A DNA stretch of 64,000 nucleotides, from sequence record MN655998.1; one strand, written 5' to 3'. Source of the stretch: Escherichia phage E26. The translations under genes and the position numbers were made by a program. The notes below the pieces were generated by a model, which saw only the letters and a list, made by a program, of their open reading frames with translations, ran no database searches and was not told the origin of the DNA. Shown here piece by piece: positions 4,061 through 6,266 of this stretch (the first letter of the stretch is position 1; each line of letters begins with the position of its first letter).

Positions 4061-5275
4061 TTAAGCAGGATGCGTTTCACGAATGCATAGAACTCGCTCT
4101 AACGTATCTCGGTCCAGTTTATGTAAATCTTTGGAATGATACATGAAACCATTGCGAGATTCCATGCAAGTGCAATCACTATATTTTTCTTCCGCTGCCG
4201 CGATTGTCTCCAGATCTTTGGCGTACTTGCTGGTAGAATAAACTTCTCGGTCACGCCACTCTAACCCAGCCTCATTGAATTTAACAATCTCGTCAAATAC
4301 CCACCATCCAATGTAGATAAATGAAGTTTTGCGCCACGGGATCGGGTGTACGTAACGAAACATTTTAACAACTTCCATTGAACATTTTCTACTTGTACTT
4401 GTTGCAACTTCTACTGTTTCATTTTCGATCTGTTGATATAGTTTAGCAACACACCAGAATTTGGCTGTGTCATCGTAAGTAGCACTCTCTTTGAACAGAT
4501 GACCGTCTGGAGTGATAGAAAATCCTTCCTGTGCTTCGCCGACCTCATTACCGATCAGAGTCGGTGACAGTTGCCCTTCGCGCTGCAAATACCAGTTATG
4601 TTTGATCGTCAATTCAGGCATACCGCTAGAATCGCCTACAATGTCCTCTGACACAACATAATTAAGTAAGATCTCATTACCTAGTGCCACGGTCTTTGAT
4701 TCCACCACATCCTGTTCTACGTTCATTGTTGCCAGCATGATTTTAGTCGATGCGCTATTGGCTGAATCTTCCGACTCACCCCACACTTTTACAGTATACA
4801 CGCCGTTTTTATCTGCTGTAAATTTTTGGATTGTAATATCCTGTTTTGTGTCTATAACTTCTTCGCCCTTACTCCAACTATAATGTAGTTCATAGTTGTC
4901 TGATGGAGTCTTCCCACCAGAAAAATTTACTGTTGCATGTAATTCTACGTCTGTTTGTGATGATACGTAGAAATGCTGCGGTTCGGTGATATTTACGATT
5001 AATTCCGCTTCTTCCATGAGGAAAACTTCAGATTCTACTGATGTCGTCGTATCGGTATCTTGTACCGTTACTTTATAGCTACCCGCATTTTCACTTGTTG
5101 CGCCTTCTACAGTTAGCGTAGCTGTGTTATTTTCATGCGGTTGGTCGTCTTTTGTCCATGTATATGTCAAATTGCTGGGTAATGGTTCGTCACCCTCTAC
5201 AGTCGCCGTTAAGGTGAAACCATCGCCAGCAAGAAAACATCTTTTGTCAGATTTAATTGATACTGTGAAAGCCAT
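4061..5275 (-). CDS. hoc: highly immunogenic outer capsid protein Hoc
   Basis: 404 aa; Ig-like N-terminal repeats; C-terminal capsid-binding motifs YVHPIPWR, GWWVFDEIV, ESRNGF matching T4 Hoc. Confidence 0.85.
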   Translation of the reverse strand: MAFTVSIKSDKRCFLAGDGFTLTATVEGDEPLPSNLTYTWTKDDQPHENNTATLTVEGATSENAGSYKVTVQDTDTTTSVESEVFLMEEAELIVNITEPQHFYVSSQTDVELHATVNFSGGKTPSDNYELHYSWSKGEEVIDTKQDITIQKFTADKNGVYTVKVWGESEDSANSASTKIMLATMNVEQDVVESKTVALGNEILLNYVVSEDIVGDSSGMPELTIKHNWYLQREGQLSPTLIGNEVGEAQEGFSITPDGHLFKESATYDDTAKFWCVAKLYQQIENETVEVATSTSRKCSMEVVKMFRYVHPIPWRKTSFIYIGWWVFDEIVKFNEAGLEWRDREVYSTSKYAKDLETIAAAEEKYSDCTCMESRNGFMYHSKDLHKLDRDTLERVLCIRETHPA

Positions 5276-5444
5276 ATAAAGCCACTCCCATCGAAAATCC
5301 GAATTTAATTAATTGAAATAGTTGATTGTCATCAACCAGATAACCATTGCGAGATTCCAATACATGAGTATTAGAATAGTGATGCAACGAGGCCGAAATA
5401 GTATCGATCTCGTCTGGGTATTTGTTCTGTTTGATGTAATACAT
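5253..5444 (-). CDS. small ORF carrying a Hoc C-terminal-like motif (ESRNGY)
   Basis: 63 aa; KYPDEID...ESRNGYLV resembles the Hoc C-terminus; overlaps hoc start by 23 nt. Confidence 0.35.
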   Translation of the reverse strand: MYYIKQNKYPDEIDTISASLHHYSNTHVLESRNGYLVDDNQLFQLIKFGFSMGVALYGFHSIN

Positions 5445-5540
5445 TGATTTTGTTAGACATGTAGTATCCTCTTTTTAATTGCATAACGGAACTACAATTA
5501 AAATTATAACAAATATTTCACAACTTTTATCACCCAAAAA

Positions 5541-6266
5541 TTACTTGAGTGTGTGGAATTGGCTATGTTTAGTCTCTCGCACCTTGACAGACCCATCGCG
5601 TTTGATATAATAGATCAGTGACTTGAGGGTGTCGTGTACATACGCGTGCGGGAAACGCTCTGGATACTTCTTCCAATCTGGAGTATTAACGATCCAGTCG
5701 AAAATCCACCACGGGCAGGAGTAGTAACCACGACCGCCACCGATCAAGCAAATGGTCGGACGGAAGCCAGTAAGATCGCAAAATGAATCAGTGTCATGTG
5801 ATGGGGAACGATGTTCTGCTTCGTCAGAGAAAATGTTTGCTACCGGAGATTTCACTTTAACTTCCGGTGCTTCTTCAACATCTGACTTAACTTCTTCGAC
5901 CACTGGTTCAACTGCTGGAGATTCTTCTTTTGTTTCTTCAATGACGATCTCAGTTTCTTTCATTGCTTCAACCAGAGACGGGTCAACTTCGTCGAATACC
6001 ACTTTATCATCTGCGGTGTCTGCTGCCAGAATAAGATCGTTAATACTGGTTCCTTCTGCCGGAGTTTCTTCTTCCATTTCGGAAGCCAGTTTAGTTAATT
6101 CGGTTTCTACGAACTCGATCATGTTCTCTAGTGATAAAGTCTTTTTGACCTTAATATCAAATTGTTTTGCGTAGTCAGCTAATTCTGTTTTAGCTGTTTT
6201 CTGTGCTTCTTTGTCGTCGGACGCCGCAATAGCGCGGAGTTCTTCGAAATATTCTTTATCAAACAT
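5541..6266 (-). CDS. acidic protein with Hoc-like capsid-binding C-terminal motif; possibly Inh-like by position
   Basis: 241 aa; acidic N-terminal half; C-terminal CPWWIFDWIV...YYIK resembles Hoc GWWVFDEIV; located between hoc and uvsW where T4 has inh. Confidence 0.55.
   Translation of the reverse strand: MFDKEYFEELRAIAASDDKEAQKTAKTELADYAKQFDIKVKKTLSLENMIEFVETELTKLASEMEEETPAEGTSINDLILAADTADDKVVFDEVDPSLVEAMKETEIVIEETKEESPAVEPVVEEVKSDVEEAPEVKVKSPVANIFSDEAEHRSPSHDTDSFCDLTGFRPTICLIGGGRGYYSCPWWIFDWIVNTPDWKKYPERFPHAYVHDTLKSLIYYIKRDGSVKVRETKHSQFHTLK

Follow-up and report, generated by a model that had tools for sequence, protein, structure and literature searches.

A putative remnant of a second hoc gene, and relationship of the Inh C-terminal domain to the Hoc capsid-binding domain, at the inh–hoc locus of Escherichia phage E26

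Hoc of phages T4 and RB49 is the closest described system to the locus studied here. The structure of its capsid-binding C-terminal domain has been solved (PDB 8T1X, Fokine et al. 2023, PMC10385173); its residues W310 and N358 contact the major capsid protein gp23, and a clash prevents Hoc from binding to capsids that have not expanded (PMC10385173). The domain also occurs in other settings: a 511-aa protein of phage PG7 combines it with a GDSL lipase, and phage Muldoon encodes two Hocs in one genome (PMC10385173). Arbiol et al. 2010 (PMC2839356) counted phi1 'ORFan168.1' and RB49 'ORF168.2' among the ORFans or unique genes.

The window analysed here comprises 64,000 nucleotides of Escherichia phage E26 (MN655998.1), an RB49-like Krischvirus in which uvsW, inh, several small open reading frames (ORFs) and hoc follow one another in this order. 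Inh is named in databases, and described in the older T4 literature, as an inhibitor of the gp21 prohead protease and a minor head component. It is conserved across T4-like phages, yet the recent reviews of the T4 head that were searched pass over it. The literature searched, whose coverage is incomplete, contained little on Inh itself and no statement of a resemblance between Inh and Hoc, and Inh is absent from the survey of Hoc-domain re-use in PMC10385173. We consider it highly probable that the locus holds the pseudogene of a second hoc gene (hoc2) beside a complete inh gene, whose product has a C-terminal domain homologous to the capsid-binding domain of Hoc, and we infer from this relationship that Inh may dock on the capsid.

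The inh and hoc genes and the proposed split module

The hoc gene (4061..5275, minus strand, as for all features below) encodes three Ig-like domains and a capsid-binding domain, and its product matches RB49 Hoc (PDB 3SHS, E 4e-186) and phrog_1149. The capsid-binding domain, at about aa 306-389 (4109-4360), matches the T4 Hoc C-domain over residues 296-383 (E 3.9e-13). The inh gene, a neighbour of hoc throughout T4-like phages, is a complete gene of 241 aa (5541..6266) annotated as 'inhibitor of prohead protease' or minor head protein. Its product covers positions 1-229 of 229 of phrog_1051 (E 7.5e-77), has Phage_Inh_N (PF26097) and Phage_Inh_C (PF26098) on record in the precomputed Pfam tables for the exact protein, and finds 100 diverse homologues of similar length (phmmer, 50%-clustered library). 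The 241-aa protein is a full-length, ordinary Inh-family member, and its ORF was never part of hoc2. Neither Inh nor the Hoc C-domain was matched in a local Pfam-A scan, though the precomputed tables list PF26097 and PF26098, and a sequence search of the PDB with Inh returned no relative.

In Inh, an N-terminal helical domain (aa 1-66, 6069..6266; PF26097), predicted with AF2 pLDDT of 90-98 and helices at 4-15, 19-34 and 46-66, is followed by an acidic linker of variable length (aa 67-166, 5769..6068; pLDDT 51-78), which is E/D-rich, indel-rich and poorly aligned across the family. The C-terminal domain (aa 167-241, 5544..5768; pLDDT 96-98) ends with RETKHSQF in the window, where the family consensus reads RETRNSsF.

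An earlier note on this DNA had proposed that the 241-aa ORF and a 63-aa ORF (5253..5444) are pieces of one decayed gene, whose Hoc-like module is split by stops and which would together form a second capsid-binding module. Its description of the sequence was confirmed when all three ORFs were read again: the coordinates and the motif strings are correct, with CPWWIFDWIV and YYIK in the 241-aa ORF, MYYIKQNKYPDEID...ESRNGYLV in the 63-aa ORF, and GWWVFDEIV, KYAKDLE and ESRNGFMYH in Hoc, and the 241-aa and 63-aa ORFs do lie in the same frame, separated by 96 nt with two in-frame stops. This common frame and short distance favour one split gene, as does the occurrence of WW[IV]FD.IV in one ORF and of ESRNG in the other. 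However, a common frame has a prior of 1 in 3 and is without meaning here, and one of the two stops is Inh's own TAA. Inh is full-length for its family, has the normal family C-terminus and possesses a complete module of its own. In the related phages JK32 and G2248, inh and an 846-aa hoc2 are two separate, adjacent genes. This gene order refutes a single ancestral gene, and independent genes in relatives are what the earlier note itself had named as evidence against a fusion. The sequence to which the small ORF belongs is hoc2, which has lost its own WV.DEI half. The YYIK shared by the two ORFs is a chance likeness, because in the small ORF it belongs to MYYIK, which stems from reading the deleted gene's first codons (MSNKINVLHQ) in the +1 frame. 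Descent of both ORFs from one gene is thus hardly credible, and the joint module falls with it. The idea of a decayed second decoration-protein gene nevertheless applies to the 63-aa ORF, which contains the 3' stump of hoc2; it does not apply to the 241-aa ORF, a complete inh.

The second hoc gene in relatives and its probable scar in the window

In relatives of E26, hoc2 lies between inh and hoc and encodes an 846-aa multi-Ig paralogue of Hoc, with about eight Ig-like domains and a capsid-binding domain. The gene is intact in six phage records (JK32, G2248, Brandy, SSG23, SFHK24 and UPWr_E1). In the phages with intact hoc2, its direct upstream neighbour is inh, a gene of its own with 241-242 aa. 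The hoc2 of JK32 and G2248 starts with MSDKINILHQT, and its stop codon TAA precedes the hairpin GCCGACCTTCGGGTCGGC, behind which lies a T run.

The window retains 48 of the 846 hoc2 codons, in two fragments that match both ends of hoc2 in the correct order. The 5' remnant (5425..5476) comprises the hoc2 ribosome-binding site (RBS; AAGAGGA) and the first 12 codons, MSNKINVLHQTE, and matches the hoc2 start of JK32 and G2248 including the upstream sequence. At the deletion junction (CAGAA|C), placed approximately at 5424..5429 by alignment with Phi1 and JK32, the 3' remnant follows in the +1 frame relative to the 5' remnant. This 3' remnant (5316..5423) consists of the last 36 codons (KYPDEID...ESRNGYLVDDNQLF) and corresponds to the second half of a Hoc capsid-binding domain; it is matched by Hoc profiles and is identical to the JK32 hoc2 C-terminus at 32 of the 36 residues. 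Comparison with JK32 and G2248 assigns 5276..5315 to the former hoc2 stop and a degraded intergenic terminator, in which the stop TAA has changed to CAA (5313-5315) and TTCGGATTTTCG is read in place of the hairpin; a search of 5276..5315 for a terminator-like site found none. Phi1-type genomes retain 75 more bases of the 5' end, equal to 25 more hoc2 codons and bounded by a CAGAA repeat.

The codons of the stump vary in a different manner from those of intact hoc2. Over the last 36 codons, the remnants, a small sample of 12 out of about 50 such genomes and of 108 nt, show 8 nonsynonymous and 2 synonymous variant codons, whereas the intact copies show 0 and 18 (hypergeometric p ~1.4e-5, our own estimate), and the nonsynonymous changes include S to Y within ESRNG and changes at conserved residues. 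This neutral-like pattern points to relaxed selection on the stump as compared with the intact copies, with no coding constraint. Positions 5316-5476 are best read as a hoc2 remnant or pseudogene, and nothing substantive was found to count against that reading.

We propose that the ancestor of RB49-type Krischviruses carried tandem Hoc genes in the order inh, hoc2, hoc. A deletion of about 2.3-2.4 kb would have taken out nearly all of hoc2, and the RB49/JEP8 type would have undergone a further 75-bp loss between CAGAA repeats, so that the final 36 codons now lie, out of frame, directly behind the RBS and the initial 12. The hoc2 stop codon and terminator would have decayed after the deletion, giving rise to a mechanical 63-aa ORF that opens at a chance ATG, crosses the stump and extends into hoc. 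The opposite direction, a recent insertion of hoc2 in the JK32/G2248 lineage with the RB49 state as the ancestral one, could draw on the majority of the short form, which is found in about 52 records as compared with 6 that have intact hoc2. However, the 'empty' site keeps the start codons, the RBS and the last 36 codons of hoc2, and the short form exists in two nested versions, neither of which is expected from an insertion; we therefore give this direction minimal weight. As the trace of a deletion, the scar would record that most sequenced Krischviruses have recently lost a second, long Hoc fibre, which bears on the dispensability and changeability of capsid decoration.

The 63-aa ORF (phrog_32100) is composed of three unrelated pieces: MYYIK from the out-of-frame 5' remnant, residues 8-43 that correspond to the last 36 hoc2 codons, and a tail that results from read-through of the lost hoc2 stop and runs into hoc. 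Its middle piece accounts for a clear similarity to Hoc, both by BLASTP (36% over 39 residues, E 7e-8) and with the Hoc PHROG profiles (E 1.5e-6). The match covers only positions 1107-1145 of 1150 of phrog_1149, an incomplete capsid-binding domain without the YVHP...GWWV.DEI half and without beta strands 1-2 and the WW helix. The 29-aa ORF (5371..5460; phrog_19377) begins at the genuine hoc2 start and contains 12 real codons followed by the out-of-frame junk QIPRRDRYYFGLVASLF; its counterparts are ORF168.1 of Phi1 (54 aa) and a 29-aa CDS of JSE.

Either ORF could be suspected of encoding a small protein with a function, such as a half-domain peptide acting as a competitor for the Hoc site or as its modulator. 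About 40 genomes keep the 63-aa frame open, the RB49 annotation lists it as ORF168.2, and it has a PHROG family and retains the ESRNG loop. Against this, its ATG is preceded by no Shine-Dalgarno sequence, and Phi1-type genomes have no ATG for this frame but a TAG just upstream in it. The two beta strands and the WW helix are missing, the 8 nonsynonymous to 2 synonymous changes strike conserved residues, and annotators differ over which frame of the scar to call. A small functional product is very unlikely, and the 63-aa ORF is no gene. Programmed +1 frameshifting that would yield a mini-Hoc2 was considered separately and rejected: the junction has no slippery or pause motif, the junction context of the Phi1 type differs, and the stump appears neutral. 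The two families, phrog_32100 (RB49 ORF168.2) and phrog_19377 (phi1 ORF168.1), are two frames of one hoc2 deletion scar, and these 'ORFan' families should not be annotated as genes.

Relationship of the Inh C-terminal domain to the Hoc capsid-binding domain

The earlier note had also pointed to a likeness among the C-terminal motifs of the three ORFs. For Hoc and the 63-aa ORF, this is borne out by BLASTP and by profiles as described above; for Hoc and Inh, it emerges at the profile level only. BLASTP between Hoc and Inh returned only the 8-residue WW[IV]FD.IV with an E-value of 0.053, not significant alone, so the Hoc–Inh homology is not settled by BLASTP. Similarly, phmmer with Inh against 1.84 billion representatives reached no Hoc-length protein, and the link needs profiles. 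An initial homologue search with Inh gave 120 near-identical sequences, unusable for a profile, and the diversity was obtained from the 50%-clustered library. With 86 diverse Inh sequences, hhalign aligned the Inh C-domain with the Hoc C-domain at a probability of 97.3% (E 2.5e-11), and reversed and shuffled controls were negative. Inflation of this result by disguised short Hocs was considered and rejected, because 94.5% and 8e-8 are reached even with a strict set, which comprised only full-length Inh proteins from their loci. Against a 6-sequence Hoc alignment, the Inh C-domain gave 73.7% and 2.9e-5. Furthermore, plain HMMER profiles produced cross-family matches between Inh and Hoc in both directions, and some Inh relatives carry the exact ESRN loop (ESRNS).

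The predicted fold points in the same direction. The modelled Inh C-domain shares the fold of the solved T4 Hoc C-domain, with a beta sheet and two helices. The Foldseek E-value against the PDB (0.45) is weak alone; in BFVD, the matches below the Inh homologues are mostly Hoc proteins with a probability of 0.97-1.0, and Hoc provides the top structural matches in two libraries and by two methods. The family-invariant residues W187, I192, W198, E231 and N234 of Inh align with W310, I315, W325, E355 and N358 of Hoc, respectively, and the elements have the same order and spacing, with 46 against 47 residues from the WW to the loop Glu.

A resemblance by chance or convergence would be compatible with the low identity of the two domains (about 18-20%), the non-significant BLASTP match and the Foldseek E-value. 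Yet it is highly improbable in view of the profile–profile E-value with its negative controls, the reciprocal HMMER matches, the equal order and spacing of the elements, the place of Hoc at the top of the structural matches, and the adjacency of inh and hoc in T4-like phages. Homology of the C-terminal ~75 residues of Inh with the Hoc capsid-binding domain is thus supported by both sequence and fold, and this relationship of Phage_Inh_C to the Hoc C-domain is new with respect to the literature searched. The suggestion in the earlier note that Inh might use a Hoc-like domain stands as homology in sequence and fold, but its pairing of motifs does not, as the counterpart of ESRNG is Inh's own C-terminal RETKHS/RETRNS.

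Inh is not a Hoc, and it lacks the string of Ig-like domains. The local Pfam-A scan found no Ig or PKD domain in Inh, and what is modelled is helical, with a linker predicted as disordered; Inh is therefore a relative of the Hoc anchor domain only. With an N-terminal helical domain, an acidic linker and a Hoc-type C-domain, it is therefore a Hoc relative in which another N-terminal module replaces the Ig fibre.

Possible capsid binding by Inh and comparison with known systems

By analogy with Hoc, Inh may bind the capsid. Its C-domain would dock on gp23, at or near the Hoc site in the capsomer centre, through the start of the conserved Trp-Trp helix and the E-T/S-R-N loop. The WW pair of Inh consists of W186 and W187, of which W187 is at least 90% conserved in the 86 sequences, and the family consensus for the loop, which as ESRNG in Hoc connects strands 3 and 4, is RETRNS, with E231, N234 and S235 at the same level (>=90%); the RETKHS of the window has K and H in place of R and N, as in the RB49 group. 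Such docking would explain the annotation of Inh as a 'minor head protein'. As a tentative and rather doubtful extension, Inh may be a Hoc paralogue that docks on gp23 capsomer centres, maybe on the unexpanded prohead, with which Hoc itself clashes. Once the capsid has expanded, Hoc would compete with Inh or displace it. If this is true, control of the maturation protease would be linked, through Inh, to whether the Hoc site of the capsomer is occupied.

The C-domain may also have kept its homology with Hoc while no longer sitting on the outer capsomer centre, having instead another partner, such as the gp21 protease, the scaffold, the inner capsid face or the unexpanded prohead. We regard this as a serious possibility, though one short of even chances. 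It fits the label of Inh as a protease inhibitor or internal protein, and KEGG-derived schemes place Inh among the head-internal components, whereas Hoc sits outside. In the hhalign alignment, compared with the contacts given in PMC10385173, neither the beta-sheet contacts Y293 and H295 of Hoc nor its conserved R300 is matched by a conserved residue of Inh: the positions hold T, C and a gap in the Inh of the window and variable residues across the family. As Hoc clashes with unexpanded capsids, an altered surface could suit another state of the capsid. However, conservation in Inh is highest in the WW pair and in the E-x-R-N loop, which are the elements by which Hoc contacts gp23 at the capsomer axis, and nothing in this analysis points to another partner. 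A Hoc-type anchor on Inh offers a concrete, testable idea of its route to the head and of the residues to mutate.

Our comparison with known systems reveals that the window's Inh does not differ at the family level from T4 Inh (inh/lip/hoc.1; PF26097 and PF26098, phrog_1051), except that the RB49 group has K-H for R-N in the loop. The differences from Hoc of T4 and RB49 are the helical N-domain and acidic linker in place of the Ig-like domains, and the missing Y293, H295 and R300. The two small ORFs of the window are the same as phi1 ORFan168.1 and RB49 ORF168.2 (phrog_19377 and phrog_32100, respectively). With its two Hocs, Muldoon sets a precedent for the pair hoc2 and hoc, and the PG7 protein uses the Hoc domain as a portable anchor with a different passenger, as Inh would. 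A BLAST search with the Hoc C-domain detects the PG7 and Muldoon proteins; Inh has diverged further and is present across T4-like phages. Inh thereby adds to the cases in which the Hoc anchor is known to be re-used as a portable capsid tag, a property exploited in T4 display and vaccine engineering.

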